Below are positions 2,247-29,665 of a stretch of DNA of 64,000 nt, piece by piece. The position numbers and the translations under genes were made by a program. The notes under the pieces are model-generated. The model saw nothing but the letters and a program-made list of their open reading frames with translations. It did not search any database and was not told the DNA's origin. Location: the NCBI GenBank assembly GCA_050943055.1, contig JBMNOL010000003.1, positions 3,982 through 67,981 on the forward strand, in the 5' to 3' direction. This DNA comes from Patescibacteria group bacterium. Lineage in GTDB: Bacteria; Patescibacteriota; Patescibacteriia; Patescibacteriales; UBA12465. The stretch's first letter is position 1; each line of letters opens with the position of its first letter.

Positions 2247-3656
2247 ATGAGAACCCTAAAATTTTATAACACCCGCTCACGATCAGTGGAAGAATTTAAA
2301 GCCGTGGCTGCCCCTCGGGTTGGTCTCTACACTTGTGGGCCGACTGTTTATAATTATGCTCATTTAGGCAACTTGCGCACTTACTTATTTGAAGATTGGC
2401 TAAAACGAGTTTTGGTTTACGCTGGTTATGAAGTTAAACATGTGATGAATGTTACTGATGTCGGCCACTTGGTTGGCGATGGTGACTTAGGGGAAGATAA
2501 AATGGAGCTAGGTGCGGCTAGAGAGGGGCGAAGTGCTTGGGAGATTGCTGATTATTATTGGCAGTCTTTTCGCGATGATTTAAAAGTTTTAAATATTATT
2601 GAGCCTACACAATGGGTTAAGGCGACTGACCACATCCCTGAACAAATTGCTTTAATTGAGCTTTTAGAAAAAAAAGGTTTTACTTACAAAACTCCCGATG
2701 GAATCTACTTTGATACCGAAAAATTTCCTCACTACAATCAGCTCTCGCATTTACGCCTTGAAGATTTAAAGGAGGGCGCGCGGGTGGAAAAAAATGCGGC
2801 CAAAAAAAATCCCACTGATTTTGCACTCTGGAAATTTTCACCGGCGGGGTCCAAAAGACAAATGGAGTGGGATTCGCCTTGGGGGCTTGGTTTTCCGGGC
2901 TGGCACATTGAGTGTTCGGCGATGGCCCTTAAGTATTTAGCGGGCAACCGCGATATTCATTGTGGCGGCATTGATCATATTAATGTTCATCACACTAATG
3001 AAATTGCCCAGAGTGAAGCGGCTACGGGCGAGAAGTTTTTTAATTATTGGCTTCACGGCGCTTTTCTAAATGTGGCCGGCGGTAAAAAAATGGCTAAAAG
3101 CGCGGATAATTTTTTAACCGTCAAGAAGGCTTTAATCGATAAAAAGATTAATCCGCTTGCTTTTCGCTTAGCCGCGGCTTCGGTTCATTATCGTAAGCCG
3201 ATGGAATATTCGGAATCCTCCTTGCGACAAGCCGAAAACACCTGGCGGAATTTAGTGCGTCAAGTGGCGGCGTTACCGGAAGCCCCGGGAAAAATTAATG
3301 CCGCTTGGCAAGAAAGTTTTTGGGAAGCCGTGGCTGATGACTTGAATTTACCGCAAGCGCTGGCCGTTACTCAAGATTTATTAAAAGCTAATTTAGATGA
3401 AGCTGATAAATTGGCAACGGTGTTAGATTTTGATCGAGTTCTCGGTTTAAGTTTAGATCGAGCTAAAGAGTTGGCGGACCGAGAAGTGCTGTTAGAAGAA
3501 TTGGCGCCGGAAATAAAAGCTTTAGTTTTGGCGCGTGAAGCGGCGCGGGCAGAACATGATTTTGCTGCTGCCGATAGGTTACGCGCCGAATTACGCGAGC
3601 GTGGTTACGCGATTGAAGATTCCAAACAAGGAATGAAAGTAATTCTATTAGATTAA
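2247..3656 (+). CDS. cysS: Cysteinyl-tRNA synthetase
   Basis: 469 aa. HIGH-type motif AHLGNLRTY, GWHIECS, and KMSKS-type motif KMAKS. C-terminal anticodon-binding helical region present. Confidence 0.9.
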   Translation: MRTLKFYNTRSRSVEEFKAVAAPRVGLYTCGPTVYNYAHLGNLRTYLFEDWLKRVLVYAGYEVKHVMNVTDVGHLVGDGDLGEDKMELGAAREGRSAWEIADYYWQSFRDDLKVLNIIEPTQWVKATDHIPEQIALIELLEKKGFTYKTPDGIYFDTEKFPHYNQLSHLRLEDLKEGARVEKNAAKKNPTDFALWKFSPAGSKRQMEWDSPWGLGFPGWHIECSAMALKYLAGNRDIHCGGIDHINVHHTNEIAQSEAATGEKFFNYWLHGAFLNVAGGKKMAKSADNFLTVKKALIDKKINPLAFRLAAASVHYRKPMEYSESSLRQAENTWRNLVRQVAALPEAPGKINAAWQESFWEAVADDLNLPQALAVTQDLLKANLDEADKLATVLDFDRVLGLSLDRAKELADREVLLEELAPEIKALVLAREAARAEHDFAAADRLRAELRERGYAIEDSKQGMKVILLD

Positions 3657-3659
3657 GTC

Positions 3660-4652
3660 ATGATTAAAAATAAGCAAAACAAGGCTACCCGTCTGGCGGC
3701 CGCTAATAATTTTTGGGCGCATTTGCCGCGTCCAATTTTAGCGCAGGCGCCGTTAGCAGGTTTTACCGATTCTCCGTTTCGGCAACTGGTGACCATTTTT
3801 GGCGCGGCGGTGACTTATAGCGAGATGATTTCGGCGGCCGCTATTTTTTATGATTCGGCTGAAACTTATCAACTCTTAAAATTTTCCCCTAAAGCCGAGG
3901 AGCACTATGTTGTGCAATTATTTGGGTCCGAACCGGAACATTTTGCGGTCGCGGCGCGTCTGGTTACTGAAAAAATAAAACCGGCGGGGATTGATATTAA
4001 TTTTGGTTGCCCAGTCCCGAAAGTTACTAAGCAGGGCGCGGGAGCGGCCTTAATGGCGGATCTTAAACGGTCGCGAGCGGTCGTAGAAGCGGTGTTAGCC
4101 AATACCGATTTGCCTGTTTCCCTTAAAATTAGAAGTGCTTCCGGCTTGATAAGCGCTCAAGAATTTTTAGCAAATCTTCAAGACTTACCGATTGCGGCGC
4201 TCATGATTCATGGTCGTACTTACAAACAAGGTTTTAGTGGACCGGTGTCAGCGGCGGTTATTAAAGAAGTACGAGCGGTTTTTAAAGGAGTCATTCTTGC
4301 TAATGGCGGGGTTAATTCCTTAAGCGATGCCCAGAAACTTTTAACTGCTAGCGGCGCCGATGGTCTTGGTTTGGGTCGTGGCTCTTTGGGACGCCCGTGG
4401 TTATTTAGGGAAATTATTAATCAACAAGAGGAGTCCTGGTCATGGCCGGAGATCGCCGCTTTAATGTTAAGGCAAGGACAATTAACCGCTACTTTAAAAG
4501 GGGAGGGTGCTTTTGTCGAGTTGCGTAAACAGTTGTGTTATTATGTTCAGGGTTTGCCGGGGGCGAGCAGAGTGCGAGCGGCCCTGGTCAAAATAAATAA
4601 TTATTCCGACTTAGAAAAAATTCTCGAGCCGATTATTAAAACTAAATCTTAA
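3660..4652 (+). CDS. dus: tRNA-dihydrouridine synthase
   Basis: 330 aa. APLAGFTDSPFR, DINFGCP and HGRT motifs of the Dus TIM-barrel flavoenzymes. Confidence 0.85.
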   Translation: MIKNKQNKATRLAAANNFWAHLPRPILAQAPLAGFTDSPFRQLVTIFGAAVTYSEMISAAAIFYDSAETYQLLKFSPKAEEHYVVQLFGSEPEHFAVAARLVTEKIKPAGIDINFGCPVPKVTKQGAGAALMADLKRSRAVVEAVLANTDLPVSLKIRSASGLISAQEFLANLQDLPIAALMIHGRTYKQGFSGPVSAAVIKEVRAVFKGVILANGGVNSLSDAQKLLTASGADGLGLGRGSLGRPWLFREIINQQEESWSWPEIAALMLRQGQLTATLKGEGAFVELRKQLCYYVQGLPGASRVRAALVKINNYSDLEKILEPIIKTKS

Positions 4653-4653
4653 T

Positions 4654-5064
4654 ATGATTTTAAAGATTGATACGACAATCAGCGATACGATAAAAATAAC
4701 TCTTTCAAAAAAAGAAGAAATTTTTTTAACGAAAGAAATTTTAGCGCCCCGCGCTCAATCAGAAAAATTATTACCGACAATTTTTCGCTTTCTTGAAGAC
4801 GCCAAAATCACCTGGTCGGATTTAAGCGGCCTGGAAGTGGTGGTTACCGGCGGATCTTTTACTAGTTTAAGAGTTGGCATTTTAACGGCTAATGCTTTAG
4901 CTTATGCGCTGAAATTACCATTGCAAGCCATCTCTGCCGAGGGTGAAAATATTTCTAAAAATAATTTAAAAAAATTTTTAAATTATAAAATTGCGGTTCC
5001 GGAATATAACAGCGAGCCTAATATCGGTCAGACCAAAAAGAGAAGCAAAGAGGTCCCCTCTTAG
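4654..5064 (+). CDS. tsaB: TsaB-like protein (t6A biosynthesis, N-terminal half only)
   Basis: 136 aa. MILKIDTT start and the GGSFTSLRVGILTANALAYAL motif match the TsaB/YeaZ N-domain. It ends where the second ASKHA subdomain would begin. Confidence 0.6.
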   Translation: MILKIDTTISDTIKITLSKKEEIFLTKEILAPRAQSEKLLPTIFRFLEDAKITWSDLSGLEVVVTGGSFTSLRVGILTANALAYALKLPLQAISAEGENISKNNLKKFLNYKIAVPEYNSEPNIGQTKKRSKEVPS

Positions 5065-5073
5065 TTATCCACA
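5065..5073 (+). promoter_or_regulatory. Perfect DnaA box
   Basis: TTATCCACA, an exact match to the consensus DnaA box, starting 1 nt after the tsaB-like stop codon. Confidence 0.6.
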
Positions 5074-5101
5074 GATAAAAAATAGTAATTTTTTCAATCA
5101 C

Positions 5102-5110
5102 TTATCCACA
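5102..5110 (+). promoter_or_regulatory. Perfect DnaA box (second copy, same orientation)
   Basis: TTATCCACA again, 37 bp downstream of the first. Both copies extend to TTATCCACAG. A roughly 60-bp very AT-rich tract follows. Confidence 0.6.
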
Positions 5111-5169
5111 GTGATTTTTTTTATTCTAAAGTTAGTAAAAAAATAATGAAAAATTTTTTTGTTTTTGTG

Positions 5170-5198
5170 TTGACCGGGGTAGCACGCTGGTGTATAAT
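5170..5198 (+). promoter_or_regulatory. Sigma-70 promoter of the mraZ (dcw) operon
   Basis: TTGACC (5170-5175), 17-nt spacer, TATAAT (5193-5198), 68 nt upstream of the mraZ ATG. Confidence 0.6.
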
Positions 5199-5265
5199 TG
5201 GGGTATAACGTCCAAAAGTGGGGAAGTGAGGTGAATTTTCTTAGCCTCTCAAAAAAGAAAATTTT

Positions 5266-5697
5266 ATGTTTATCGGTGAGTATCAACACAATTTAGATGA
5301 TAAAGGGCGCTTAGCAATTCCCGCAAAATTTAGAAGTGCTTTTAAAAAAGGGGCAGTGGTTACTAAAGGTTTAGACAACTGCCTGGTTTTGTATTCTCCA
5401 GAACAGTTTACCGTGATTGCGAAAAAATTTGCCGCTCTACCTTTAAGTCAAGCACGGGCGCGGGCTTTTTCTCGTCATATGTTAGCGGGCGCTATGGATG
5501 TAGAGTTTGATGTTCAAGGAAGAATTACTTTGCCGGAGTATTTACGTCAGTTTGCCGGCGTCAAAAAAAATGTCATCATTGCCGGTTTATATAATCATTT
5601 AGAAATTTGGGATGAAGCTGCCTGGCAGAAATATAAAGCAGAGGCGGATGAGCACAGCAGTGAGATCGCTGAGCAGCTAGGAGATCTAGGTATTTAA
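5266..5697 (+). CDS. mraZ: Transcriptional regulator MraZ
   Basis: 143 aa. Duplicated SpoVT/AbrB-like halves with DDKGRLAIPAKFR and DVQGRITLPEYLR. First gene of the dcw-type cluster. Confidence 0.9.
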   Translation: MFIGEYQHNLDDKGRLAIPAKFRSAFKKGAVVTKGLDNCLVLYSPEQFTVIAKKFAALPLSQARARAFSRHMLAGAMDVEFDVQGRITLPEYLRQFAGVKKNVIIAGLYNHLEIWDEAAWQKYKAEADEHSSEIAEQLGDLGI

Positions 5698-5701
5698 AAA
5701 C

Positions 5702-6643
5702 ATGAGTTATTCGCACCAAGCAGTTTTACTGGAGGCGGCCCTGTCTTTTCTCAAACCGCAAGCCGGTGAGGCCTTTATTGATGGAACTTTAGGTGGCGCC
5801 GGTTATACTTTGGCCTTAGCCCAAGCGGTTGGCCCGACCGGTCAAGTTTTAGCTGTTGATTTAGATGACTTAGCTTTAGAAAATGCTCGTCAAAAAATTG
5901 CCACCGCCGGTCTCAGTAATATTTCTTTAGTTAAAGGTAATTTTCGTAACTTACTAAATATTGTTCAGACAGAATTTGGTGCCGAGAAAAAGTGGTCCGG
6001 TCTGGTTTTAGATCTAGGTTTATCTTCAGCTCAATTAGCAGATAAGAATCGGAGCTTTTCCTTTAAAGATGATCGTCCTCTGGATATGGCTTTTGGTGGG
6101 GTGGAGACAGCAGCTATTAAGACGACAACAATTGTTAATCGTTATCCGCTCGCTAAGCTAGCTGCTGTGATTTCTAAATATGGCGATGAACCCCAGGCTT
6201 TCAGTATTGCGCAAAAAATTGTTCGCGCGCGGAAGAATAATAAAATAAAAACCACCGGCCAACTTTTAGAAATTACCGGCTTAAATCAGTCCACCAAGAC
6301 GCGACTTCATCCGGCCACTAAATTGTTTCAAGCGCTACGAATGGAAACTAATCAGGAACTGGCCGCATTGGAAGAAGTTTTAGCCGCGAGTTTAGAACTG
6401 TTGGCTCCGGGTGGAAGATTAGTAGTCGTTTCTTTCCATAGCGGTGAGGATCGAATCGTTAAAGAGTTTATTAAAAGGGAAAGTCAGGATTGTATTTGCT
6501 CTCCAGCCGCACCTGTTTGCGTCTGTAGTCACCGAAAACAATTTATCCCCTTAACCAAAAAACCGGTTATTGCTGATGAGGTAGAAAATAGTCGTAATCC
6601 ACGTGCCCGCAGTGCCAAACTCCGAGCAGCACTAAAGATTTAA
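5702..6643 (+). CDS. rsmH: 16S rRNA (cytosine1402-N4)-methyltransferase RsmH
   Basis: 313 aa. HQAVLLEAAL, GTLGGAGYT and SFHSGEDRIVK motifs. Sits directly after mraZ. Confidence 0.9.
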   Translation: MSYSHQAVLLEAALSFLKPQAGEAFIDGTLGGAGYTLALAQAVGPTGQVLAVDLDDLALENARQKIATAGLSNISLVKGNFRNLLNIVQTEFGAEKKWSGLVLDLGLSSAQLADKNRSFSFKDDRPLDMAFGGVETAAIKTTTIVNRYPLAKLAAVISKYGDEPQAFSIAQKIVRARKNNKIKTTGQLLEITGLNQSTKTRLHPATKLFQALRMETNQELAALEEVLAASLELLAPGGRLVVVSFHSGEDRIVKEFIKRESQDCICSPAAPVCVCSHRKQFIPLTKKPVIADEVENSRNPRARSAKLRAALKI

Positions 6644-13313: not shown

Positions 13314-14366
13314 ATGGAAAATATTCTCGAAAAAATCGTTAAAGAGCAAAAACAAGAAGAACTGGAAAAACTGAATGCGATTAAAATCGTTGACAGTTTG
13401 TTTGGCGAATTACCGGAGCGAGAATCTGATGTTTTGTCACGGCGCTATGGTTTGCGTGGTGGCCGCGGTGAAACTTTGGAAAAAATTGGACAATCACACC
13501 ATCTAACCCGCGAGCGGGTTAGACAAATTGAATCAGCGAGCGTGAAAAAAATTAAAAAACTAGAAAAGCTTGATTCTTGTTTAGGCTCGTTTAAAGAGGC
13601 GGTTTCAGAATTAATTAAACGTCACGGCGGCCTACTTAATCGCGAGTATTTACTAGATATTCTAACGGTTTATGCTTTAGAGTTAGGCAGCGAAAATCGT
13701 CAGGAACTTGATCCCGAGACTAAAGAAATTTATCGCAACCATGCGGACTTTTTGATTTCTAAACTTTTGGAAGATGAGATTGAAATTGTTAAAAAATCCG
13801 ATCGCTTTGTCGTCTCTTATAAATTGAAATCTGCAGAAACCAGGACTTTGGAAGAATTGGCTGATGATTTATTAAGTAAAGTTTCTCATTTAAGCGAGAC
13901 GATGACGACGGCTGATTTATTAGAATTAATTAAGAGTCTAGACGCCTATAATCGTTATCAAGAAGAAATTCGTCGAGAAGAAGATTTGGATGTGACACCC
14001 ATCTTTAAAAGTAAGATTTTCCCTGATAAGGGCGAGTTGATTAATTCCAATAAAGTTTTGTATGGCTTGCTGCGGGCGGTTCGCGGCGTGGCCCGGAATA
14101 ATTTCGGCTATTGGGGACCAACATCTTCACATGAAATCCGACCAAAGACGGTGAATGATAAAATTTATTTAATTTTAAAAAATGCCGGTCACCCCTTACA
14201 CTTTACCGAAATTGCTCAAAAAATTAACGAAGTGAAGTTTGATAAAAAAACCGCTAACCCGGCGACCGTCCACAATGAATTAATTTTAGACAGTCGTTAC
14301 GTTTTAACTGGTCGGGGCCGATATGGTTTAAAGGAGTGGCAAGAAGTTCCTGTTGAGAAAAGATAA
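13314..14366 (+). CDS. Sigma-70 region-4-like HTH protein with C-terminal HARE-HTH domain
   Basis: 350 aa. Residues about 30-83 (LPERESDVLSRRYGL...TLEKIGQSHHLTRERVRQIESASVKKIKKL) look like sigma-70 region 4. The last roughly 70 aa (HFTEIAQKI...LILDSRYVLTGRGRYGLKEW) match the HARE-HTH pattern of RNAP delta. No region 2 is visible. Confidence 0.7.
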   Translation: MENILEKIVKEQKQEELEKLNAIKIVDSLFGELPERESDVLSRRYGLRGGRGETLEKIGQSHHLTRERVRQIESASVKKIKKLEKLDSCLGSFKEAVSELIKRHGGLLNREYLLDILTVYALELGSENRQELDPETKEIYRNHADFLISKLLEDEIEIVKKSDRFVVSYKLKSAETRTLEELADDLLSKVSHLSETMTTADLLELIKSLDAYNRYQEEIRREEDLDVTPIFKSKIFPDKGELINSNKVLYGLLRAVRGVARNNFGYWGPTSSHEIRPKTVNDKIYLILKNAGHPLHFTEIAQKINEVKFDKKTANPATVHNELILDSRYVLTGRGRYGLKEWQEVPVEKR

Positions 14367-14394: not shown

Positions 14395-14418
14395 AAAACG
14401 CCTTTAGGAGGCGTTTTT
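14395..14418 (+). terminator. Rho-independent terminator
   Basis: AAAACGCC-TTTAGGA-GGCGTTTTT hairpin with a T-run, 29 nt after the stop. Confidence 0.6.
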
Positions 14419-14448: not shown

Positions 14449-15984
14449 ATGAATATCGAGCTTGATACCTCACGTTTAGATTATTTTTTTGCGGCCGATT
14501 TTGGTGAAATGATGTGGCTTTTTTTTGCCAACGTTGGTTGGATTGTTTTAGCAATCTTTTTTCTTTTCGGGGTTCGGGAAATTTATCTTTTTTACATTCA
14601 AACTAAATTTGCTAAAGGTTTGAAGTATGTCTTATTGGCTATTGATGTCCCTCGGGGTAATACCCAGTCGCCAAAGGCCGTGGAAAATCTTTTTACTTAT
14701 TTAGGTGGTGCTCATGGATCGGTAAGTTTTTACGAGAAATGGTTTGAGGGGCGCTTCCAACAAGCGTTTAGTTTTGAAATTGTCGGTATTGATGGCTACA
14801 CTCAATTTGTTATTCGCACTCCAGTCGAGCAACGTTTTCTTTTGGAATCGGCAATTTATTCACAATATCCCGATGCGGAAATAAGTGAGATTGATGATTA
14901 TACTTCAAATGTTCCCAATCGTTTTCCTGATGATGAGTGGGACCTTTGGGGTGGCGAATTTATTTTAAGTGCTCCTGACGCTTATCCGATTAAACTCTAC
15001 TCGGAGTTTGAGTCCATGCAAGGTGAGCCGGAAGAGCGGTTTAAAGATCCGATGGCCACCTTAATGGATTTAACTAGCTCCTTAAATAAGGGAGAGCAAC
15101 TGTGGTTACAATTTATTGTAATTCCTATGGATTTTGCTTGGGTAAAGCGTTCGGATGCGGAGGTTGATAAAATTTTAGGGAAGACACCAAAGACTAAACA
15201 AGGTCTATTTATTAGTTTTTTGGTTTGGCTAGGTGAGCTCAGTGAGCACGTTTTTGCTATTTGGAAGGATATCAAACCGAAAGAGGAAAAAAAGGCGCTT
15301 TCCATGATGGAATTAACGCCCAAGAAAATAAAACAAATTGAAGGTATTCAGAATAAAGCTTCAAAGCTCGGGTTTGGCTTTAAAATGCGGGCGATTTGTA
15401 TTGGCCGTAAAGGTGTTTTTAATAAGGGGAAAATGGTTTCCGGTCTAGTTGGCTGGGTGAAGCAATTTACCGCTTTGGATTTAAATGGTTTTAAACCGGA
15501 TATGAAAGTAACGGCGACTAAAACGGCTTATTTTAGAAAAGATGCGCGTCTGGTAACCAAGAAGAATATTATCATGCAAAATTATGTTAACCGTTCTTTA
15601 GCTGGTCGTCCACCGTCAATTTTAAATATTGAAGAGTTGGCGACACTTTGGCATTTTCCTTTAGACGCAGTGGTTAAGGCGCCGCTCATTCAAAAGGCTC
15701 CAGGGCGAAAATCCGATGCTCCGGCCGAACTGCCAATCGCTGATGATATCTCTAACACCCAAGCGCCGCCGCCCGATATTTTTAGTGGCTTAACCAGGAA
15801 GGAAGAGAAGCCGACTCCGAAAAAAACAGTTATTGAAGATAGTTCTCCGGTGGTTGAAGATGATCGTTTTTGGTTGGAACCTAGCGGTTCGGTGAAAAAT
15901 AATTTTTATCAGCCGGCTCCAAAAACAGCGGCTGGAAAATTGAGCGATACAGCTGAACCACCGGCCGATTTACCTTTTGTTTAA
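14449..15984 (+). CDS. Conserved-looking membrane protein of unknown function (TM + globular module ending in EELATLWHFP + Pro-rich tail)
   Basis: 511 aa. TM helix at about aa 21-48, then LLAIDVPRGNTQSPKAVENLF, SFEIVG..FVIRTP and YSQYPDAEI. No Walker A is seen. The C-terminal roughly 100 aa are Pro/Asp/Lys-rich. Confidence 0.6.
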   Translation: MNIELDTSRLDYFFAADFGEMMWLFFANVGWIVLAIFFLFGVREIYLFYIQTKFAKGLKYVLLAIDVPRGNTQSPKAVENLFTYLGGAHGSVSFYEKWFEGRFQQAFSFEIVGIDGYTQFVIRTPVEQRFLLESAIYSQYPDAEISEIDDYTSNVPNRFPDDEWDLWGGEFILSAPDAYPIKLYSEFESMQGEPEERFKDPMATLMDLTSSLNKGEQLWLQFIVIPMDFAWVKRSDAEVDKILGKTPKTKQGLFISFLVWLGELSEHVFAIWKDIKPKEEKKALSMMELTPKKIKQIEGIQNKASKLGFGFKMRAICIGRKGVFNKGKMVSGLVGWVKQFTALDLNGFKPDMKVTATKTAYFRKDARLVTKKNIIMQNYVNRSLAGRPPSILNIEELATLWHFPLDAVVKAPLIQKAPGRKSDAPAELPIADDISNTQAPPPDIFSGLTRKEEKPTPKKTVIEDSSPVVEDDRFWLEPSGSVKNNFYQPAPKTAAGKLSDTAEPPADLPFV

Positions 15985-15988
15985 AAGT

Positions 15989-17188
15989 ATGAAAAAAAAA
16001 CCTACTCTCCGGCGCATTATTGGTGTTGATGCTCGTTTTTATGGCCCCTTAGGAAAAGGGCTGGGGCGTTACACTCAAGAAGTGGTTGATAACGTTATTA
16101 GAATTAATCAAGATGAACCGCTAGATTTTGTAATTTTTTTATCGCCGGATAATTTTGATGAATTTGTTTGCCCCAATGAAAATGTGCGCAAGGAATTAAT
16201 TAAGGCGCGTTGGTATTCCTTGGCGGAACAATTTGAGGTGCCTTATAAGTGGTGGCGGGCGAAAATTGACTTGATGCATTTTCCGCATTTTAATGTTCCT
16301 TTAATTAAAAGGGGGGCCTTTGTCGTTACTATTCATGATCTTATTTTAACGAAGTTCCCAACGGTGCGAGCCACCACCAGAGCCCCTTTTATTTATTGGT
16401 TAAAAGATAAAGCTTATCGACTGGTGATCCGATTGGCGATTAAAAAAGCTAAACAGGTGATTACTGTTTCTGAATTTACGAAAAAAGATTTGATAACTCA
16501 ATTTAAAACTCCTCCAGACAAAATCGTTGTTACTTATGAAGGGGTGGCGAATTTAAGTAAGGGGGGGGACTCTCTTTTTGTGGCCAAGCTTGATCATCAG
16601 CGTACCTTGGAGCTTTATAATATTCGCAGTCCTTACTTGTTATATGTGGGCAATGCTTATCCGCATAAAAATTTAGAAGGTTTAATTAGAATTTTTGCTG
16701 AACTGCGAAAGGAGTATCCGGATTTACGTTTAGTATTAGTGGGGAAAGAAGATTTTTTCTATGAGCGGGTGCGTTTTTACGCCCAGCAATTAAATTTATG
16801 GCAAAAAGAAAATCATAATACCCCGGTCGTTTTTCCCGGCTATGTGCCGGATATTGATTTGGAGGCTTTATTCCAAGAAGCGGCTCTTTATGTTTTTCCT
16901 TCTCTCTATGAAGGTTTTGGCCTGCCGCCACTTGAAGCGATGGCTTACGGTTGTCCGGTGGCTAGCTCTAATTGTGCCAGTATGCCAGAAATATTGGGCA
17001 GCGCCGCCGTTTATTTTAATCCCGAAAATGAAGAGGAAATGCGAACGGTAATTAGTGATCTTCTAAAAAATAAAGATGCTCGGGAAGAATTAAAAGTTTT
17101 AGGAAAACAGCAAGTAAAAAAATATAATTGGTGGGAGTGCGCTCGCCTAACCTCCGAAATCTACAAACGTTTACTAATTAAAAGTTAA
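15989..17188 (+). CDS. Family 4 (GT-B) glycosyltransferase
   Basis: The ORF-track start at 15977 is TTG. ATG at 15989 (MKKKPTLRRIIGVDARF) is preferred. C-terminal EGFGLPPLEAMAYGCPV motif of GT4 enzymes. Confidence 0.8.
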   Translation: MKKKPTLRRIIGVDARFYGPLGKGLGRYTQEVVDNVIRINQDEPLDFVIFLSPDNFDEFVCPNENVRKELIKARWYSLAEQFEVPYKWWRAKIDLMHFPHFNVPLIKRGAFVVTIHDLILTKFPTVRATTRAPFIYWLKDKAYRLVIRLAIKKAKQVITVSEFTKKDLITQFKTPPDKIVVTYEGVANLSKGGDSLFVAKLDHQRTLELYNIRSPYLLYVGNAYPHKNLEGLIRIFAELRKEYPDLRLVLVGKEDFFYERVRFYAQQLNLWQKENHNTPVVFPGYVPDIDLEALFQEAALYVFPSLYEGFGLPPLEAMAYGCPVASSNCASMPEILGSAAVYFNPENEEEMRTVISDLLKNKDAREELKVLGKQQVKKYNWWECARLTSEIYKRLLIKS

Positions 17189-19627
17189 ATGTTTAAGAGC
17201 AGAAAAGCAAAAAAATCTTTATTGATGGGGGAGACCTCGACGGCCCCAGATTTTTTGCGCGGTCTTGATGGCGCGTTGCTTAAGGGCGCTAAAAAAAATA
17301 AAGAAAATCGTCAGCGACAGACGCGTCGACAATTAGAAAAACAAGCGCGGCGTGATTTAAAATTATTAACCAAAAATATAAAAACCGTTCAACGGGAGGT
17401 AGAAAAAATAGACCGCGAGCCGCTGCCTAAAAAATGGACTTTAAGTTATTTTGGTCGTCGCTTCCGCGAACGACAAACACAGCGTCGCTTGAGATTTTAT
17501 GAAAAAAAACTTGATGCTCAGCTTAGGATTGGTGAAAAAAAACTATCTTCCTGGCGTCGGAAGAATTTTAAAAAACCTTCAAACTCTCGCCGTCCTTGGT
17601 TTTTGCGCATTATTATTTTTGCCGGGGTTCTTTTTTTAATGATCATTCCTTTTCAAATTTTGGTGCAATTCAGCGACCGGGATAACTATTCTTTCAAAGA
17701 CTATTTTTTAAACGTCACCAAAAGTGCTTGGGCTAATTTAACCAGTGGCGGCGAAGCCCTGGCTAATCAAGATTGGAATCGGGCTGAAAAAAGTTTTAAT
17801 CAGGCTGGTGACCAATTTTATCAAGCGGCGGCCGGTTTAAAGATTATTAATGATCGACTCTTATCTTTAGCGGCTTACACTAGTAATCCAGAATTAAAAT
17901 TGGTGGCCGAGAGTAAGAAATTATTAAAGATTGGTTCTTTAGGTTCGGAGCTGGCCGCGGAAATCACTGCCACTCTTAACAGCTGGGAGCGTGCGGATGG
18001 TGATTGGTTGGTGCTACTAACTCAATTGGAAGCCCGGGCGACAACGGCTCAGTCTTTAGCCAACAATCTCGTTTCCGAATTAGAAACAGTGAGGGTGGAA
18101 AATTTGCCCGCCGCCTACCAAGCGGATTTTCAAGAAATAGTCGACCAGGCTGCCGCTCTGCCAACGGCTTTAAGTTTGATCGGTGACAATGCCGGTCGCT
18201 TTAAAAAATTATTAGGTAGCGGTCAGGACAAACGGTATTTGTTAGTTTTTCAGAATAATAATGAAATTAGAGGTTCGGGTGGCTTTTTAGGAAGTTATGC
18301 CTTAATTGATTTTCGTGACGGACAGATAACTAATTTAGAAGTTCCTGGTGGTGGTTCTTACGATACTGAGGCCGGACTTAATTTAAATATTATTGCGCCT
18401 GAGCCTTTGTGGTTGGTTAATCCGAAGTGGCATTTTTGGGACGCTAACTGGTGGCCAGATTGGCCGACAACGGCCCGCAACCTCGGGTGGTTTTTAGAAA
18501 AAAGTGCTGGTCCGACTGTCGATGGCGTGATTTCTTTTACCCCCAGCGTGATTGAAGAATTATTAAAAATTACCGGTCCGATTGATTTAAGTGCCGAGTA
18601 TGGTGTGGTGGTAACCGCTGAAAATTTTTGGCAGGAGGTGCAATTAACGGCTGAGCGATATAATTTGGTAGGCACCAATCCCGATTTGGTCGCGCACTTG
18701 CCGGCGGGGGAGGAGAATAAACCAAAAAAAATTATTGGCACTTTGGCGGAAGAAATTTTAGAGATTTTACCGGAAAAAATGAATCAAGATAATTTTCTTA
18801 AACTCGCTTCTTTAGTCGAAGAAAGCTTGGCCACGAAACAGGTGCTACTTTATTTTTCTGATCCCGATTTGCAGGCGATGGTTTCTCAGTGGGGCTGGAG
18901 CGGGGAAGTAGTTGCGGCGCCTTACGATTATTTAATGGTGGTTAATACTAATATTGCGGGCGCTAAAACTGACCGGATGATTAAAGAAACAATTAATCAG
19001 CAGGTGAATATTAAAGAGGATGGCCGGGTGGTTGTTGATTTAAAAATAAAACGTGAGCACACGGCGTCACCACATACCCCTTTGGTGGGAGTACGAAATG
19101 TTAATTGGCTTAGAGTTTATGTGCCTGAGGGTGCTAAACTCTTAAAAGCCGGAGGCTTTAAAGCTCCGGACGCCGAGTATTTTTCTTATCCAGAACCTGA
19201 TTGGCAAGAAAATGAACTTCTAGCAACTACCGAAGGGCAGGCTTTAGTTGAACCTGTTAGCGGTACCAAAGTTTATTCCGATTCCGGTAAGACGGTCTTT
19301 GCTAATTGGAGTATGATTGATCCGGGCGAGACAGCGGAGTTATGGTTTGAATACGAATTACCTCAACCGGTGCCCGAATTAAAAGTTGCCGATAATTTAT
19401 TTCAGCGCTTAAATAACTGGCTTAACCCGGAAAACATAAGTCGCTACAATTATTCTTTACTGGTTCAAAAGCAACCGGGAGTGATTAATGATAATTATCA
19501 GCTCCAGGTTAAGTGGCCAGATAATTATCATTTGAATTGGCAAGGTCCAGGTTTAATTGGTGGTCAAGCGCCACTCACGCCCTTAACTCGGGATCGCTTT
19601 TTTTCTTTAGCTTTTAGTAATTATTAA
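17189..19627 (+). CDS. DUF4012 domain membrane protein
   Basis: 812 aa. A roughly 130-aa Arg/Lys-rich N-tail, one TM (WFLRIIIFAGVLFLMIIPFQILV), and DKRYLLVFQNNNEIRGSGGFLGSYALIDF, which I recognise as the DUF4012 core. Confidence 0.75.
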   Translation: MFKSRKAKKSLLMGETSTAPDFLRGLDGALLKGAKKNKENRQRQTRRQLEKQARRDLKLLTKNIKTVQREVEKIDREPLPKKWTLSYFGRRFRERQTQRRLRFYEKKLDAQLRIGEKKLSSWRRKNFKKPSNSRRPWFLRIIIFAGVLFLMIIPFQILVQFSDRDNYSFKDYFLNVTKSAWANLTSGGEALANQDWNRAEKSFNQAGDQFYQAAAGLKIINDRLLSLAAYTSNPELKLVAESKKLLKIGSLGSELAAEITATLNSWERADGDWLVLLTQLEARATTAQSLANNLVSELETVRVENLPAAYQADFQEIVDQAAALPTALSLIGDNAGRFKKLLGSGQDKRYLLVFQNNNEIRGSGGFLGSYALIDFRDGQITNLEVPGGGSYDTEAGLNLNIIAPEPLWLVNPKWHFWDANWWPDWPTTARNLGWFLEKSAGPTVDGVISFTPSVIEELLKITGPIDLSAEYGVVVTAENFWQEVQLTAERYNLVGTNPDLVAHLPAGEENKPKKIIGTLAEEILEILPEKMNQDNFLKLASLVEESLATKQVLLYFSDPDLQAMVSQWGWSGEVVAAPYDYLMVVNTNIAGAKTDRMIKETINQQVNIKEDGRVVVDLKIKREHTASPHTPLVGVRNVNWLRVYVPEGAKLLKAGGFKAPDAEYFSYPEPDWQENELLATTEGQALVEPVSGTKVYSDSGKTVFANWSMIDPGETAELWFEYELPQPVPELKVADNLFQRLNNWLNPENISRYNYSLLVQKQPGVINDNYQLQVKWPDNYHLNWQGPGLIGGQAPLTPLTRDRFFSLAFSNY

Positions 19628-19630
19628 TAT

Positions 19631-21679
19631 ATGTCTATTAAAAAAAATATTCCGGTCACGGCCGGTCCAGCAAAAAATAAGCCCACACCTAAAGATTCTA
19701 ATCAGAGGGGGGCAGAAAATTCTGAGCTTAAGTCTGGAGCGATATCTGAACCGCAGCCAACGCGGCGGCCAGTTTTTAGCGCTCATCCAGTACCCACCAA
19801 AGAGCAGGTCAAAAAATTTGAACAGGCGGTTCGTCGGGAGGCTCGCGAAGAAGAAATTGAGGATAATCTCTCGGAAATTTATCGTGATAAAAAGGGTGAA
19901 TTAGTTAATGTTTCAGAATTTAAGGCGCGCAAAAAACCAGTTTTAGTTTTGTTTTTAAAGAATATTTTTGTCTTAGCGGTAATTGCTTCATTAGCTTATG
20001 CCGCCTTCACTTATTTTTTCAGCCCCAACGCTAACGAGGCTAGAGTTAATCTAGAAATCACCGCTCCTGATGAAGTTAAAGCCGGCGAACCTTTTAGTTA
20101 TTCGGTTGTTTACGAAAACCGGAGTGAGTTCGTTTTAAAAAATTTACGTCTTGAACTCAAATATCCAGAAAGATTCATTCGCGAGGAGGTGAGCGGAGAG
20201 CTAACACCGCTAGGCAGCGCCGGTAATTATTTTGAATTACCAGACTTGCCGATTGGTGGTCGGGCGGAAATAAAAATTTCCGGTCGATTAATTGGTAAAC
20301 AAGATTCTACGAATATTTTAACAGCCGGTTTAAGTTTCGCACCCCAAGATTTTTCTAGTCAATTTAAAGAAGAGGCCGTTTCGGCAATTACGATTAGTAG
20401 TCTCGGTTTTGATTTGGGTTTTGAATATAGTAATGCCGTCTTAGTTGGCCAGGAAAATGAAATAGAGCTTAACTTTGGTCGGCCCGATGGCACCTTCTTA
20501 GAAAATTTTGATTTGTCTTTTTCCTTTCCGGAAAATATTTCTTTGGTGAACGCCACTACTACCGCTACCAATACGGAGGTAACCGTTGATAAAAGTAATT
20601 TAGTTTGGCGAATAGAAAATTTTGCCTCTTCAACCGAGGATTATCGTTTGCCGGTTCGCTATAAAGTTAACCGCAAGGTTGCTGACAGTCAGGATTTAAT
20701 TATCCGCCTTAGCCAAAGAGATGATAAGGGGCAAGAATATGTCTTTTTAGAAAAAGTTATCAATCTCTCAATAATGACTAGTAATTTGAATTTAGTTTTA
20801 AGTGTTAATGGTAACAAAACTGAGGGGGCGGCTAGCTTCGGTGAGACGCTTAAATATTCTTTAAGTTATGTTAATAAAAGTGATAATGATTTACAGGATA
20901 TAGTTTTGATGGCCGTTTTAGATGGTGATTGGCTGGACTGGAAATCAATTAAGGAAACGGCTGGCGGAAAAATAAAAAACAATACGATTGTTTGGACTAA
21001 GGAGGAATTACCCGCTTTGGCGACTTTAGAGCCGGGTGCTAGTGGGGAACTAAACTTTGAGATTGCTATTCAAGATTATACCCCTGATAAGCTGGGTGAT
21101 AAGACAATCATTACCAGCTATGCTTACTTTACTTTAGGCAGTCAAAGCACCGGTCTTAATGATAGTAAGAGTAATACGGTGATAACTAAAATAAATAGCG
21201 ACTTCCAATTTACAGAGCAGGTCCTATATTTTGATGAAAACAATCTGCCTGTCGGTAGTGGCCCTTTACCGCCGGTAGTTGGTCAAGAAACTGGGGTGCG
21301 CGTTTATTGGCACTTGGAAAATAACCTCAATGAATTAAAAGGCGCTCGCGTGATGGCTGTTTTACCGGAGTATGTTAATTTTGCTGGTGCTCGTAATACT
21401 TCTTGGGGAAGCCTTAGCTTTGATCCGGGTACGAGATTTGTTACCTGGGAGCTCGGTGACTTGCCGCTTACAACTTATCAAGCGCAAGCTCAATTTGATT
21501 TAACATTGACGCCGACTGAAGATCAACGCAATACTTTATTGGTTCTTTTGCCGGGGAGCACCGCCCAAGCTTTAGACGCGGAAACGGGAATTATGCTGAC
21601 CGCTTCGGCTCAAGCAAAGACAACAAAACTAGAAGATGACAGTATTGCCGCTTTAAGTAATTCCGGCTTGGTTCAATAA
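19631..21679 (+). CDS. Single-pass membrane protein with repeated beta-sandwich (DUF11/CARDB-like) ectodomains
   Basis: 682 aa. Disordered N-tail and TM VLVLFLKNIFVLAVIASLAYAAFTYFF. Repeated pattern of the type VKAGEPFSYSVVYENRS..LKNLRL and SFGETLKYSLSYVNKSDNDLQDIVL. Confidence 0.6.
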   Translation: MSIKKNIPVTAGPAKNKPTPKDSNQRGAENSELKSGAISEPQPTRRPVFSAHPVPTKEQVKKFEQAVRREAREEEIEDNLSEIYRDKKGELVNVSEFKARKKPVLVLFLKNIFVLAVIASLAYAAFTYFFSPNANEARVNLEITAPDEVKAGEPFSYSVVYENRSEFVLKNLRLELKYPERFIREEVSGELTPLGSAGNYFELPDLPIGGRAEIKISGRLIGKQDSTNILTAGLSFAPQDFSSQFKEEAVSAITISSLGFDLGFEYSNAVLVGQENEIELNFGRPDGTFLENFDLSFSFPENISLVNATTTATNTEVTVDKSNLVWRIENFASSTEDYRLPVRYKVNRKVADSQDLIIRLSQRDDKGQEYVFLEKVINLSIMTSNLNLVLSVNGNKTEGAASFGETLKYSLSYVNKSDNDLQDIVLMAVLDGDWLDWKSIKETAGGKIKNNTIVWTKEELPALATLEPGASGELNFEIAIQDYTPDKLGDKTIITSYAYFTLGSQSTGLNDSKSNTVITKINSDFQFTEQVLYFDENNLPVGSGPLPPVVGQETGVRVYWHLENNLNELKGARVMAVLPEYVNFAGARNTSWGSLSFDPGTRFVTWELGDLPLTTYQAQAQFDLTLTPTEDQRNTLLVLLPGSTAQALDAETGIMLTASAQAKTTKLEDDSIAALSNSGLVQ

Positions 21680-28168: not shown

Positions 28169-29665
28169 ATGACTTTTTGGCGGCGACGAAGCCTAATAGT
28201 CGGATTCTTATTTTTAAGTGGTGTTTTCTTTTTCTTGTTGCCCGCTCAAGCGCAATCGCTGCCGGAGCGCTTAGCGGGGCGAATTTTGCTGCAAGTAGAA
28301 AGCCACGGTGAAGCTTGGTATGTTAATCCGACTAATTTAAAGCGTTATTATTTAGGGCGCCCTAGCGACGCCTTAGTTTTAATGAGGCAGCTCAGCCTTG
28401 GCATTTCCGAGGCTGAGTTTGCGACTTGGAATAAAGAGGCACCAGCCTGGGCACGCGGTCGTTTATTTTTGCGACCCGAGAGCCACGGTGAAGCTTACTA
28501 CGTCGACTTAAATCAACGTTGGCATTATTTAGGTCGTCCTGATGACGCTTGGCAACTCTTACGCCAACAAGGGCTCGGGATTACTAACACTGATTTAAAT
28601 AAAATCCCGGCGGCGACTAGCGCTCCTCTCAGCGCGACAATCGCTCCACCGCCACCGACCAGTTCGCTAAATTTAGACCAGGTAAGCTCTTTAACTTGGA
28701 AATATAAACAAGAAAATTATCAACAAAATTTTTCTTTATCAAGTCAGTTGTATAAAGATTACGCCGCCAGTCTAAAAATTTTTTATTATAATGATCAAGC
28801 TGATGTTCAAGCGGTGCGAGAAAGTTTTTATGGTTTATTTTTAAAGCCTAAAGAGGGCGATACTTTAGTCAGCGATTTAGCAGCCTATGCGCGGCGCACG
28901 GGTCGCAGCCGTGCTTGGAGTAGTGATCAGATCGCGGAATTTGTTTTGGCGCTAGTGCAGTATATTCCTTATGATCAGAGCAAGCTCACGCAATCGCCAA
29001 TTATTCCTAATTACCCTTATGAAACCGTTTATAAAAATTCCGGCGTTTGTTCCGATAAGACTTTTTTGGCAGTCAGTCTTTTACGAGAACTTGGCTATGG
29101 GGCGGCTATTTTAGACTTTCCCGAAAATAATCATTCGGCGGTCGGTATTGCTTGCCCCCGAGAGGATTCAATTGCCGGCAGTGGCTATTGTTTTGTTGAA
29201 ACGACTAATTATTTTCCGCCTGGAGTTGTCCCCGGAGCGATTTCTTCCGGGCAAGCTGTGGGCGGTTCGGAGGCGACTGTGGCATTATTTACCGCTGATC
29301 ATTTAGGCCGTTTAGAGATTTATCAAAAAACATCAGGGTCTCTTTATGAGGGAGTGAGAGCAACTAAAGAATGGGCAGAGTCTTTAAAAAATCTTTATCA
29401 GCGCTTAGCCGCCGAAAAGCAGTTATTAGACGCGGCCGGAAAAGAGTTGAGCGCCGAACAGGAGCGCTTAAGCGTCCAGCGCGCTAAGCTTGATGCCTAT
29501 TTAGCCGCTGGCGATTTATTGGCCTATAACAAGGAGGTAAATGTCTATAATCAGGCGGTTAACGAATATAATAGTGATTTAGAAGGCTACCGCGAGCAGC
29601 AGCAAGAATATAATAATTTAGTGATTACGTTCAATCAGGGTTTGGCTGATTTTTACCAAAAATAA
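28169..29665 (+). CDS. Secreted transglutaminase-like (Cys-His) protein with tandem N-terminal repeats and C-terminal coiled coil
   Basis: 498 aa. Signal-like N-terminus ending AQAQS and two roughly 50-aa repeats (ESHGEAWYVNP.../ESHGEAYYVDL...). Putative catalytic SGVCSDKTF (Cys) and ENNHSAVGI (His). Heptad-rich C-terminus. Confidence 0.6.
   Translation: MTFWRRRSLIVGFLFLSGVFFFLLPAQAQSLPERLAGRILLQVESHGEAWYVNPTNLKRYYLGRPSDALVLMRQLSLGISEAEFATWNKEAPAWARGRLFLRPESHGEAYYVDLNQRWHYLGRPDDAWQLLRQQGLGITNTDLNKIPAATSAPLSATIAPPPPTSSLNLDQVSSLTWKYKQENYQQNFSLSSQLYKDYAASLKIFYYNDQADVQAVRESFYGLFLKPKEGDTLVSDLAAYARRTGRSRAWSSDQIAEFVLALVQYIPYDQSKLTQSPIIPNYPYETVYKNSGVCSDKTFLAVSLLRELGYGAAILDFPENNHSAVGIACPREDSIAGSGYCFVETTNYFPPGVVPGAISSGQAVGGSEATVALFTADHLGRLEIYQKTSGSLYEGVRATKEWAESLKNLYQRLAAEKQLLDAAGKELSAEQERLSVQRAKLDAYLAAGDLLAYNKEVNVYNQAVNEYNSDLEGYREQQQEYNNLVITFNQGLADFYQK

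Follow-up and report, generated by a model that had tools for sequence, protein, structure and literature searches.

The window, a 64-kb stretch of DNA, contains on its + strand an ORF (14449..15984, ATG start) that encodes a 511-aa protein of the DUF8128 (PF26449) family. The ORF is a real gene and not a chance reading frame, because it has 1994 homologues at E<=1e-3 among 8000 candidates scored, its family comprises 2118 representative clusters at 50% identity (the best 150 of which are 279–691 aa long), and the exact protein is present in two independent public assemblies. Directly upstream lies a gene (13314..14366, + strand) for a 350-aa protein with Pfam matches to Sigma70_r4 and HARE-HTH, domains which suggest that this neighbor binds DNA. 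Reading of the 82-nt gap before the ORF revealed a G+C-rich palindrome, a hairpin flanked on either side by T runs (14395..14417). It may be a bidirectional terminator, in which case the ORF would open a unit of its own; a promoter/terminator scan listed the hairpin on the − strand only, and the output of that scan, terminator-like sites included, was not above the shuffled expectation. Downstream, a GT4 glycosyltransferase gene (15989..17188, + strand) starts 5 nt past the DUF8128 stop according to public gene calls, or overlaps the ORF when a TTG at 15977 is taken as its start. The tightly packed genes that follow GT4 (17189..21679, + strand) encode envelope-type DUF4012 (812 aa) and DUF11/CLIPPER (682 aa) proteins, which are context genes of the locus.

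The order PBP-MurF-RmlD-RmlA-GT2-SigR4/HARE-DUF8128-GT4-DUF4012-DUF11 was kept in 80 of 80 species genomes of the clade to which the window belongs, and the mean column identity of the DUF8128 proteins of this clade was 63%. The Sigma70_r4/HARE-HTH gene was found directly upstream in every window-clade locus with a readable upstream flank, and GT4 was found downstream in every one that extended beyond the DUF8128 gene.

Domain organization of the window protein

The hydropathy scan detected a single strongly hydrophobic stretch, a transmembrane (TM) helix at aa ~21–50 (14509..14598, + strand), which AF2 modeled as part of a long helix (aa 18–56); a weaker hydrophobic stretch at aa 253–271 is a helix within the folded domain. 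Considering the basic residues past the TM helix (R44, K53, K56 and K59), the positive-inside rule suggests that the large domain is cytoplasmic; the short N-terminal segment, which is acidic, probably faces outward. The globular alpha/beta domain spans aa ~57–405 (14617..15663, + strand), and its AF2 model was confident (pLDDT 94, pTM 0.90). A script located LLAIDVPRGNTQSPKAVENLF at aa 62, SFEIVG at 108, FVIRTP at 120, YSQYPDAEI at 137, LWLQFIVIPMD at 218 and NIEELATLWHFP at 393–404. The last of these (15625..15660, + strand) closes the domain family-wide: residues E396–P404 were invariant in alignment A1 except for L400, and the closing xHxP motif (EELATLWHFP in the window protein) was found in 139 of 150 representatives. 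A pattern scan of the 511 aa detected neither the Walker A pattern [GA]xxxxGK[ST] nor a looser variant of it. The original prediction, made from the DNA alone, was accordingly correct in the motifs that it quoted, all of which lie in the ORF, and in its single TM helix, its globular region of about 350 aa and its lack of GxxxxGK[ST].

The same prediction had described the remainder of the protein as a Pro-rich, disordered-looking tail. The last 107 residues indeed contain 16 Pro and have pLDDT <50, but the tail is not featureless, because it carries two conserved peptides (aa 405–430 and the last eight residues). The first, LDAVVKAPLIQKAPGRKSDAPAELPI (15661..15738, + strand), includes the first PxxLP motif and has the consensus xEANVKAPxIQKAPGRKADAPSSLPI; in alignment A1, V409, Q415, G419, K421, P425, L428 and P429 were invariant, and PxxLP occurred at most 40 aa past xHxP in 134 of the 150 representatives. 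Next comes a variable, Pro-rich linker (aa 431–503; 15739..15957, + strand), which had pLDDT <50 and was unconserved in alignment A1. Across the family, the segment from xHxP to the C-terminus, linker included, ranges from 26 to 276 aa, and the long DUF8128 homologues differ in linker length only; three of them that were read among the best 150 had longer linkers and no ATPase domain. The protein ends with the peptide PPADLPFV (15958..15981, + strand; family consensus PPxNLP[FIVLT]), in which P505 and P509 were invariant and L508 and F510 were at least 90% conserved in alignment A1. Of the 150 representatives, 129 had the PPxNLP motif in their final 12 residues, as did 119 of 120 clade members, and the motif was not seen in the last 25 residues of the 55 fused ORFs that reach their own stop. 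We propose that the C-terminal PPxNLP[FIV] peptide serves, together with the linker, as a tether or docking peptide.

Family assignment came from the homologues. All of the best 120 carried PF26449 in precomputed Pfam labels; the label had E<=1e-5 for homologues 54–58% identical to the window protein and was only ‘weak’ for the exact protein. Judged by these labels, the window protein is a member of DUF8128, an uncharacterized Patescibacteria family. Sequence searches with the ORF against NCBIfam, the PDB and a copy of Pfam-A without PF26449 yielded nothing useful (for Pfam, no match at E<=1), and a literature search for ‘PF26449’ and ‘DUF8128’ found no paper.

Fused and split relatives

A set of 120 metagenome loci was collected through the motif YVDEFQNFA of TrwB/VirD4-type ATPases. 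In 53 ORFs of these loci (and 6 N-truncated ones), a DUF8128 HMM match lay in the same frame N-terminal to the ATPase, with E values down to 1e-88. The layout of the fused ORFs starts with a TM helix, continues with a DUF8128-like domain that closes with E-L-A-[ST]-x-[FWY]-H-[FL]-P, and ends in a TrwB/VirD4/TraG-type ATPase with its Walker A motif; the xHxP motif precedes Walker A by ~60–70 aa in the 59 ORFs. Residue-level alignment showed that the window protein and the fused proteins are collinear through LNIEELA[ST]xxH[FL]P...EPPxxLP. After EPPxxLP, the fused proteins proceed directly to ...TNFR...FGIKxxDRRRHMYIIGKxGxGKS, and the ATPase N-terminus begins at most ~20 aa past the post-domain segment. 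As compared with these fused ATPases, which belong to the T4CP homologues counted in a 2025 survey (PMC12102498), the window protein has the same N-terminal TM helix, ~350-aa domain, closing motif and PxxLP, but in place of their P-loop domain it has a disordered linker and, at the C-terminus, a PPxNLPFV peptide that is absent from them.

In 14 of the 120 loci, DUF8128 had a gene to itself, with the ATPase gene immediately following. Besides these 14, the two genes are tightly spaced in L005, L087, L088, L089, L090 and L091, where the ATPase start ranges from overlapping the DUF8128 stop by 4 nt to lying 7 nt past it. The ATPase was also next door in all seven of the more distant DUF8128 loci with a readable downstream gene. 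Split pairs such as these six, which come from Uhrbacteria-like and other lineages, resemble the window protein in architecture, linker and C-terminal peptide, and most of them have the same Sigma70_r4/HARE-HTH gene upstream. In the metagenome set, this gene lies directly upstream at 10 of 12 loci with the split arrangement and at 6 of 35 with the fusion, L090 and the contig of P0234 being further cases of direct adjacency. The split pairs differ from the window locus in the slot of the next gene, which is occupied by the ATPase in the other lineages and by GT4 in the window clade. The closest split-adjacent relatives were 41–44% identical to the window clade, and six ATPase-adjacent DUF8128 proteins that were looked up directly were 33–35% identical; the closest sister representatives, P0123 and P0128, are on 2–4-kb contigs that end before any downstream gene. 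In some lineages, such as Magasanikbacteria (L119), the ATPase is unlinked from DUF8128.

The partner ATPases of the relatives match PF10412, PF12696 and PF02534, and many also match PF01935/DUF87. These data agree with the statement in the original prediction that similar N-terminal modules of CPR proteins precede a VirD4/TraG-type ATPase, as 53–59 of the 120 loci are fused in this manner. Its other option, a HerA/DUF87-type ATPase, fits the partner and not the window protein, because the PF01935 match sits beside PF10412 in the ATPase of the relatives, whereas PF01935 was not detected in the ORF or in the other window ORFs scanned. The word ‘orphan’, which it had also used, is too strong, since the stand-alone form is the rule across the DUF8128 family, where the gene that follows normally encodes the ATPase.

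Structural neighbors of the domain

When the domain model was compared with the PDB by Foldseek, the best 11 matches were all TrwK/VirB4 chains (E 8e-5 to 7e-3, probability 0.80–1.0, TM 0.33–0.41, rmsd 10–12 Å). Other RecA-type ATPases (TrwB, FtsK, HerA) were not among the matches; for this reason, the match to TrwK probably falls on the VirB4 N-domain. VirB4 (TrwK of plasmid R388; PDB 7o42, 7o43, 8rtb and 8rtd) is the only significant solved structural neighbor of the domain, and the two share a logic in which a membrane-proximal N-domain is followed by an ATPase of the FtsK/HerA superfamily. They differ in that no sequence match was obtained with Pfam (PF03135 included) or hhalign, the TM score is ~0.4, and the ATPase of the relatives fits T4CP rather than VirB4 profiles. 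In hhalign comparisons of DUF8128 profiles with TrwK, TrsD, TrsE and phage PBC2_243, the best match had E=0.0037 and 9% probability; TrwK gave E=0.15–0.33, and pGO1 TrsD gave E=0.12 over 24 columns with the 151-sequence DUF8128 profile. A sequence-level link to VirB4 or TrsD was therefore dropped, and the link to VirB4 is a structural one. With respect to the coupling proteins themselves (VirD4/TrwB/TraG), the window protein has a membrane anchor but no nucleotide-binding domain, and TrwB, which was absent from the fold matches, has no counterpart of the DUF8128 N-domain.

Search for a partner ATPase

The window locus has no PF10412/PF12696 ATPase in the ORF or in the next gene, which is GT4. 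Neither an ATPase nor SecD/F, BacA or ClpB was found when six ATPases and these proteins were compared with the 64-kb window by tblastn, and BLAST across the 80 clade loci did not find the ATPase within 10 kb. Two protein searches, with the Uhrbacteria-type ATPase of L005 and the unlinked Magasanikbacteria-type ATPase of L119, returned no contig that matched a Falkowbacteria-clade contig in length, and the genes neighboring unlinked ATPase loci had no informative match in the window or the clade loci. As neither the window nor the 10-kb surroundings in 80 related genomes contain the ATPase, any partner must have its gene elsewhere, just as had been predicted for a stand-alone module whose ORF contains no P-loop. 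The 2025 survey reported VirD4-type T4CP homologues in 2,918 of 3,035 Patescibacteria genomes (96%), with only 148 of 5,713 T4CP homologues in Patescibacteria near virB4, and two or more T4CP homologues in each of the three Falkowbacteria GW2011 genomes that were checked (PMC12102498). Judging from this prevalence and from the existence of unlinked lineages, a partner ATPase is probably present in the genome of the window.

Proposed role of the window protein

The homology of the whole domain with the N-terminal domain in fused proteins is plain from the alignment, and the position of the split, the strict adjacency in other lineages and the structural match to VirB4 were likewise observed directly. 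As a whole, we consider it fairly likely that the ORF encodes, as a protein of its own, the N-terminal half of an ATPase that is specific to CPR bacteria and related to the motors of type IV secretion, and that it acts in trans. In many Patescibacteria, the TM helix, the DUF8128 domain and a TrwB/VirD4-type P-loop ATPase form one polypeptide, and in a large subgroup the gene is split right after ...WHFP...APxxLP. Its front part then specifies a single-pass membrane protein with a presumably cytoplasmic domain resembling the N-domain of VirB4, and the back part, now the next gene, a soluble ATPase; the two halves no longer adjoin in the window clade. The window protein would still be the membrane anchor and docking platform of a soluble T4CP-like ATPase encoded elsewhere, with the flexible linker and the conserved C-terminal PPxNLPFV keeping this partner tethered at the membrane. 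The VirB4 N-terminal domain probably occupies the membrane-facing side of the inner-membrane complex, and it is by analogy with this domain that we infer an anchoring and docking role in trans. A DNA-linked function is our leading guess, on the basis of the conserved Sigma70_r4/HARE-HTH neighbor and the DNA dependence of T4CP-type motors.

On this reading, the coupling-protein ATPases of Patescibacteria would gain an anatomy that includes a membrane-anchored VirB4-like N-domain, and the uncharacterized family DUF8128, with its domain in three arrangements (fused to the ATPase, split into an adjacent gene, or unlinked as in the window), a concrete and testable role. Interaction studies could take the conserved C-terminal peptide as a candidate handle, and the window clade, in which anchor and motor would be naturally separated, may be useful for asking what the anchor does alone. 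The survey noted that T4CP homologues away from type IV secretion genes may have been exapted (PMC12102498). We suggest, as a speculative and rather unlikely extension, that DUF8128 works with the soluble T4CP-like ATPase and the Sigma70_r4/HARE-HTH protein as one housekeeping machine of Patescibacteria that is independent of conjugation. Such a machine would translocate DNA or nucleoprotein while tethered to the membrane, with a VirB4-like build and a VirD4-type motor that the C-terminal PPxNLP holds in trans in the split forms, and its loose genomic coupling in the window clade, beside a division/cell-wall cluster, would point to a role in handling the chromosome or taking up DNA, not in secretion.

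Because the window clade is only 33–35% identical to ATPase-adjacent members and is tightly coupled to GT4, a changed function is possible. The protein of this clade could have been repurposed to work without an ATPase and with GT4, DUF4012 and DUF11, for example as a membrane scaffold for the assembly of an envelope glycopolymer beside the division/cell-wall cluster. The 5-nt spacing between the DUF8128 stop and the GT4 start, the PBP-to-DUF11 order kept in all 80 clade genomes, and a mean column identity of 63% within a clade so far from the ATPase-linked members are all consistent with such a change. However, common descent can by itself account for synteny in one clade, ATPase-linked loci have the same SigR4/HARE companion upstream, and the window protein has kept all of the family-invariant residues as well as EELATLWHFP, the PxxLP segment and the PPxNLPFV typical of ATPase-linked split forms. 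We regard repurposing as unlikely.

Serving a VirB4 rather than a T4CP-like ATPase is a further possibility, which we consider very improbable: the window protein would be an accessory subunit of a Patescibacteria type IV secretion system, a stand-alone protein like the N-terminus of VirB4, as TrsD is. There is precedent for this in Staphylococcus plasmid pGO1, where trsD directly precedes the VirB4-like trsE, and stand-alone TrsD, remotely homologous to the VirB4 N-terminus, has 2,272 homologues in Patescibacteria (PMC12102498); VirB4 is, moreover, the only solved fold neighbor of the domain. However, TrsD has 227 aa and lies within a conjugation gene cluster, as against a ~350-aa domain plus TM helix here, and profile comparison with TrsD, TrsE and TrwK gave nothing. 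In the relatives, the ATPase that is fused to DUF8128 or encoded next to it matches the T4CP families PF10412, PF12696 and PF02534, no gene of a type IV secretion system was seen beside it, and separate TrsD–VirB4 pairs are listed in Falkowbacteria genomes (PMC12102498). At the window locus, Pfam did not find a VirB4-like gene as the next gene, and genes for VirB3, VirB6, VirB8 and pilin were not among the 31 window ORFs scanned (those of at least 150 aa that lie before 34194), which are housekeeping or envelope genes.

A decayed Walker A in the strand-loop-helix LLAIDVPRGNTQSPKAVEN (GxxxxGK[ST] to GNTQSPKA), for which the right order of strand (60–66), loop and helix (75–87) in the models and the 90–100% conservation of G70, P75, K76 and A77 might speak, is hardly credible and was ruled out, because two fold searches gave VirB4 chains alone as significant matches and no RecA- or P-loop-type ATPase, because fused relatives have a complete, separate Walker A further downstream of VPRGNTQSPKA, and with Pro in place of the Walker A glycine and Ala in place of Ser/Thr.

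Outside bacteria, the Foldseek search of BFVD matched Bacillus phage proteins of 551–913 aa (E=1e-14 to 4e-8), and the phrog_5156 HMM matched the domain with E=3.7e-9. These jumbo-phage proteins (phage G gp156, JL, Slash and PBC2_243; phrog_5156) have the same N-domain fold, placed N-terminal to a P-loop NTPase, the P-loop of one related phage protein being at about aa 455. They differ from the window protein in that they are phage-encoded, fused and ~550–935 aa long, with an identity of only 12–20%.

A membrane-anchored member of DUF8128

The ORF at 14449–15984 (+) begins with ATG and encodes a 511-aa protein. It is a real gene, since 1994 homologues of the product were found at E ≤ 1e-3 among 8000 candidates scored, 2118 related clusters were present among 50%-identity representatives, and two unrelated public assemblies carry an identical protein. 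All motifs quoted in the original prediction were located by script (LLAIDVPRGNTQSPKAVENLF at aa 62, SFEIVG at 108, FVIRTP at 120, YSQYPDAEI at 137, LWLQFIVIPMD at 218 and NIEELATLWHFP at 393–404), and a scan of the whole ORF for [GA]xxxxGK[ST] and looser variants was empty, in agreement with the predicted lack of a P-loop (Walker A). The single strongly hydrophobic segment (aa ~21–50) has acidic residues before it and basic residues after it, so the positive-inside rule would place the large domain in the cytoplasm.

Searches of Pfam-A (in a copy without PF26449), NCBIfam and PDB sequences returned nothing. The window protein is a member of Pfam DUF8128, as PF26449 is named in context tables; this is the precomputed label on 120 of the 120 best homologues and a precomputed 'weak' match on the exact window protein. 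A literature search found no mention of PF26449 or DUF8128. Where the source is named, homologues come from Falkowbacteria and from other Patescibacteria; they span 455–514 aa among the best 120 and 279–691 aa among the best 150 representatives; the longer representatives whose sequences were read differ in disordered-linker length alone and contain no ATPase domain. A proline-rich, disordered-looking tail of roughly 100 aa had been predicted, and the final 107 residues do include 16 prolines, with pLDDT <50 in the model, but alignment of 47 clade members (63% mean column identity) revealed two conserved elements there: residues 405–430 (consensus xEANVKAPxIQKAPGRKADAPSSLPI) and PPxNLPFV at the extreme C-terminus. 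The PPxNLP motif lies within the last 12 residues of 129/150 representatives and 119/120 clade members. A variant cluster (L160, 3375–8555) comprises SigR4/HARE, DUF8128, a 219-aa protein, a 443-aa ATPase paralogue and a 624-aa ATPase; its DUF8128 protein (423 aa) is without the PPxNLP tail, and the 219-aa protein and the paralogue start with ...GGKPPSKLP and ...APPPSKLS, so that the PPxxLP peptide can sit on other cluster proteins.

Separation from a T4CP-type ATPase

Downstream of the gene for a distant DUF8128 member (P0200, 35% identity to the window protein), after a gap of 7 nt, comes the gene for an 811-aa protein with Walker A GKTGMGKT at ~aa 40, a PF10412 (TrwB_AAD_bind) match, zinc ribbons and no TM helix. 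The family of this partner ATPase is very large and very conserved: every one of 8000 candidates scored reached significance, and the best 120 of at least 8000 homologues are 75–82% identical. They are named 'type IV secretion system DNA-binding domain-containing protein' at source and match PF10412, PF12696 and PF02534. A DUF8128 gene lay directly upstream in 3/3 of those looked up on long contigs, in the order SecD-SecF-DUF8128-ATPase-...-BacA. The ATPase is also the next gene for the DUF8128 representatives L090 and L091, the former in the order SecD-SecF-x-Sigma70_r4/HARE-HTH-DUF8128-ATPase. The ATPase thus adjoins every non-clade DUF8128 locus with a readable downstream gene. Five inspected ATPases, both fused and split (L005, 6223–8658; L090, 7020–9767; fused ORFs in L203, L208 and L193), end in a conserved G[EQ][ST][VI]KF(D/N), preceded by long tails that are Lys-rich or contain zinc ribbons.

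The peptide YVDEFQNFA is invariant in the ATPase; a scan of metagenome contigs for DNA that encodes it gave 120 loci, which were sorted with a DUF8128 HMM built from 150 representatives. At 53 loci a single stop-to-stop ORF carried the DUF8128 domain followed by the ATPase, and a further 6 had this arrangement but were cut at the N-terminus, so that the suggested occurrence of such modules before VirD4/TraG-type ATPases holds for CPR bacteria. The two were split at 16 loci, with the DUF8128 gene directly upstream in 14 and non-adjacent in 2; at 8 loci the ATPase had at least 1.3 kb of upstream sequence free of DUF8128, and the arrangement was undecidable at 36. In fused ORFs, [FWY]H[FL]P precedes Walker A by ~60–70 aa and YVDEFQNFA follows ~245 aa further on. 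Aligning the window protein residue by residue with three split and six fused proteins fixed the position of the split. The alignment was collinear from the TM helix through LNIEELA[ST]xxH[FL]P...EPPxxLP, from which fused proteins pass within ~20 residues to ...TNFR...FGIKxxDRRRHMYIIGKxGxGKS, whereas split proteins have a variable linker and then the terminal PPxNLP peptide. Inspection of the last 25 residues found PPxNLP at the C-terminus of no fused ORF running to its own stop. Elsewhere in this family a T4CP-type motor is part of the same polypeptide; the window protein is the N-terminal half, detached from it. One metagenome locus (L203) carries two tandem DUF8128-containing ORFs, 218–2737 (839 aa) and 3264–6143 (959 aa), with fusion to the ATPase shown for the 959-aa ORF only; a tandem duplication is possible and would fit ~2 T4CP homologues per genome (PMC12102498).

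Unlinking in the window clade

Among species-representative genomes, 422 contained a relative of the window protein, and the best 80 were 47–82% identical to it. As far as contigs reach, 80/80 share the order PBP-MurF-RmlD-RmlA-GT2-Sigma70_r4/HARE-HTH-DUF8128-GT4-DUF4012-DUF11-TGT, and in no case does the ATPase lie within 10 kb. The module stands alone as predicted, being a PF26449 protein without an ATPase domain in a 64-kb window that holds no ATPase, SecDF, BacA or ClpB homologue and whose other 31 scanned ORFs are ordinary housekeeping/envelope genes. Since the closest relatives with an adjoining ATPase (L184 and L137) are 41–44% identical to clade members, unlinking is specific to the window clade among its relatives; it is a third arrangement of DUF8128, beside fused and split-adjacent. 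Unlinked ATPases occur in other lineages too: L119 (3308–5050, on a 506-kb contig), L102, L144 and L209, the last three forming one group (74–76% identical). Many MAGs with the syntenic locus (L007, L009, L010, L015, L037 and others) are labelled 'uncultured Gammaproteobacteria bacterium' or 'Bacillota bacterium', labels that are unreliable taxonomy for MAGs with a Patescibacteria locus.

Indirect evidence favours the presence of the partner ATPase elsewhere in the window genome. A survey found 5,713 VirD4-type T4CP homologues in 2,918/3,035 Patescibacteria genomes, only 148 of them near virB4, and its authors raise possible exaptation; in its Table S3, three Falkowbacteria GW2011 genomes checked each have at least two T4CP homologues away from virB4 (PMC12102498). 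The window protein also retains both PxxLP peptides, the closing motif and every residue that is invariant across the family. Two ATPase protein searches, the unlinked seed (L119) being from Magasanikbacteria, gave no match on any long contig known to carry clade DUF8128. Public gene calls place the GT4 start 5 nt past the DUF8128 stop, a spacing that would suit a DUF8128 repurposed together with GT4, DUF4012 and DUF11; given the retained residues, we consider this unlikely.

Genes for DUF4012 (17189–19627, +, 812 aa) and DUF11/CLIPPER-like (19631–21679, +, 682 aa) proteins come after GT4 with gaps of 0–3 nt. Wherever a clade locus reaches far enough downstream, these genes are retained as a block, which is probably envelope-related. 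Further along the window, the ORFs 28169–29665 (498 aa) and 35143–36057 (304 aa), both (+), had no Pfam match at 1e-5, and 36079–39465 (+, 1128 aa) brings together a C92 permuted-papain amidase with lamin-tail and Laminin_G_3 domains.

Fold, possible mechanism and companion gene

Full-length modelling gave a mediocre structure (pLDDT 68.5), with TrwK/VirB4 as best PDB matches. A domain-only model (aa 55–410, 143-sequence alignment) reached pLDDT 94 and pTM 0.90, and the fold search advised with the original prediction returned TrwK/VirB4 chains as all 11 best PDB matches (E 8e-5 to 7e-3, TM 0.33–0.41), the next (E=0.03) being unrelated. The tool reports matches without aligned residues; because no TrwB, FtsK, HerA or other RecA-type ATPase was among the PDB matches, the matched part is probably the VirB4-specific N-terminal domain.

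On the most likely reading, the window protein would be a single-pass membrane protein, N-terminus outside and large domain inside. A soluble hexameric ATPase would dock at the membrane on this cytoplasmic, VirB4-N-domain-like domain, and the variable linker and terminal PPxNLPFV peptide may substitute for the lost covalent link. The protein would work like the VirB4 N-domain but lies outside VirB4 by sequence and gene context. A similar split in pGO1 TrsD/TrsE could suggest a TrsD-like VirB4 accessory protein; this is quite improbable, as the window protein is not a TrsD/TrsE member by sequence or gene context and profile comparisons with TrwK, TrsD and TrsE were not significant. That the domain is a degenerate P-loop is hardly credible given its fold matches. 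The main value of the finding is a testable architecture for DUF8128 and for the enigmatic 'T4CP homologues' of Patescibacteria.

A Sigma70_r4 + HARE-HTH protein (window 13314–14366, +; L090 3830–5002; L160 2334–3371) is encoded directly upstream in all window-clade loci with upstream flank sequence, and in 10/12 split-adjacent and 6/35 fused metagenome loci with enough upstream sequence. This companion suggests a DNA-related substrate or regulator, and it may supply the system with a third component, one that binds DNA.

The domain also has matches among viral models, namely Bacillus phage proteins of 551–913 aa (E=1e-14 to 4e-8), and PHROG 5156 (824-position profile) matches aa 104–319 (E=3.7e-9). 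The N-terminal 240 residues of PBC2_243, a 935-aa 'P-loop NTPase', align weakly, and its TrwB-like P-loop region lies at ~aa 455. In large Bacillus phages, proteins of 550–935 aa join this N-domain fold to a P-loop NTPase, examples being PBC2_243 (L004, 5716–8523) and BFVD G3MBM2, S5MSQ0, U5Q0H6 and A7KUX5. In PBC2, an M23 peptidase is encoded two genes upstream, and one such phage protein carries the erroneous annotation 'Lipid A export ATP-binding/permease MsbA'.
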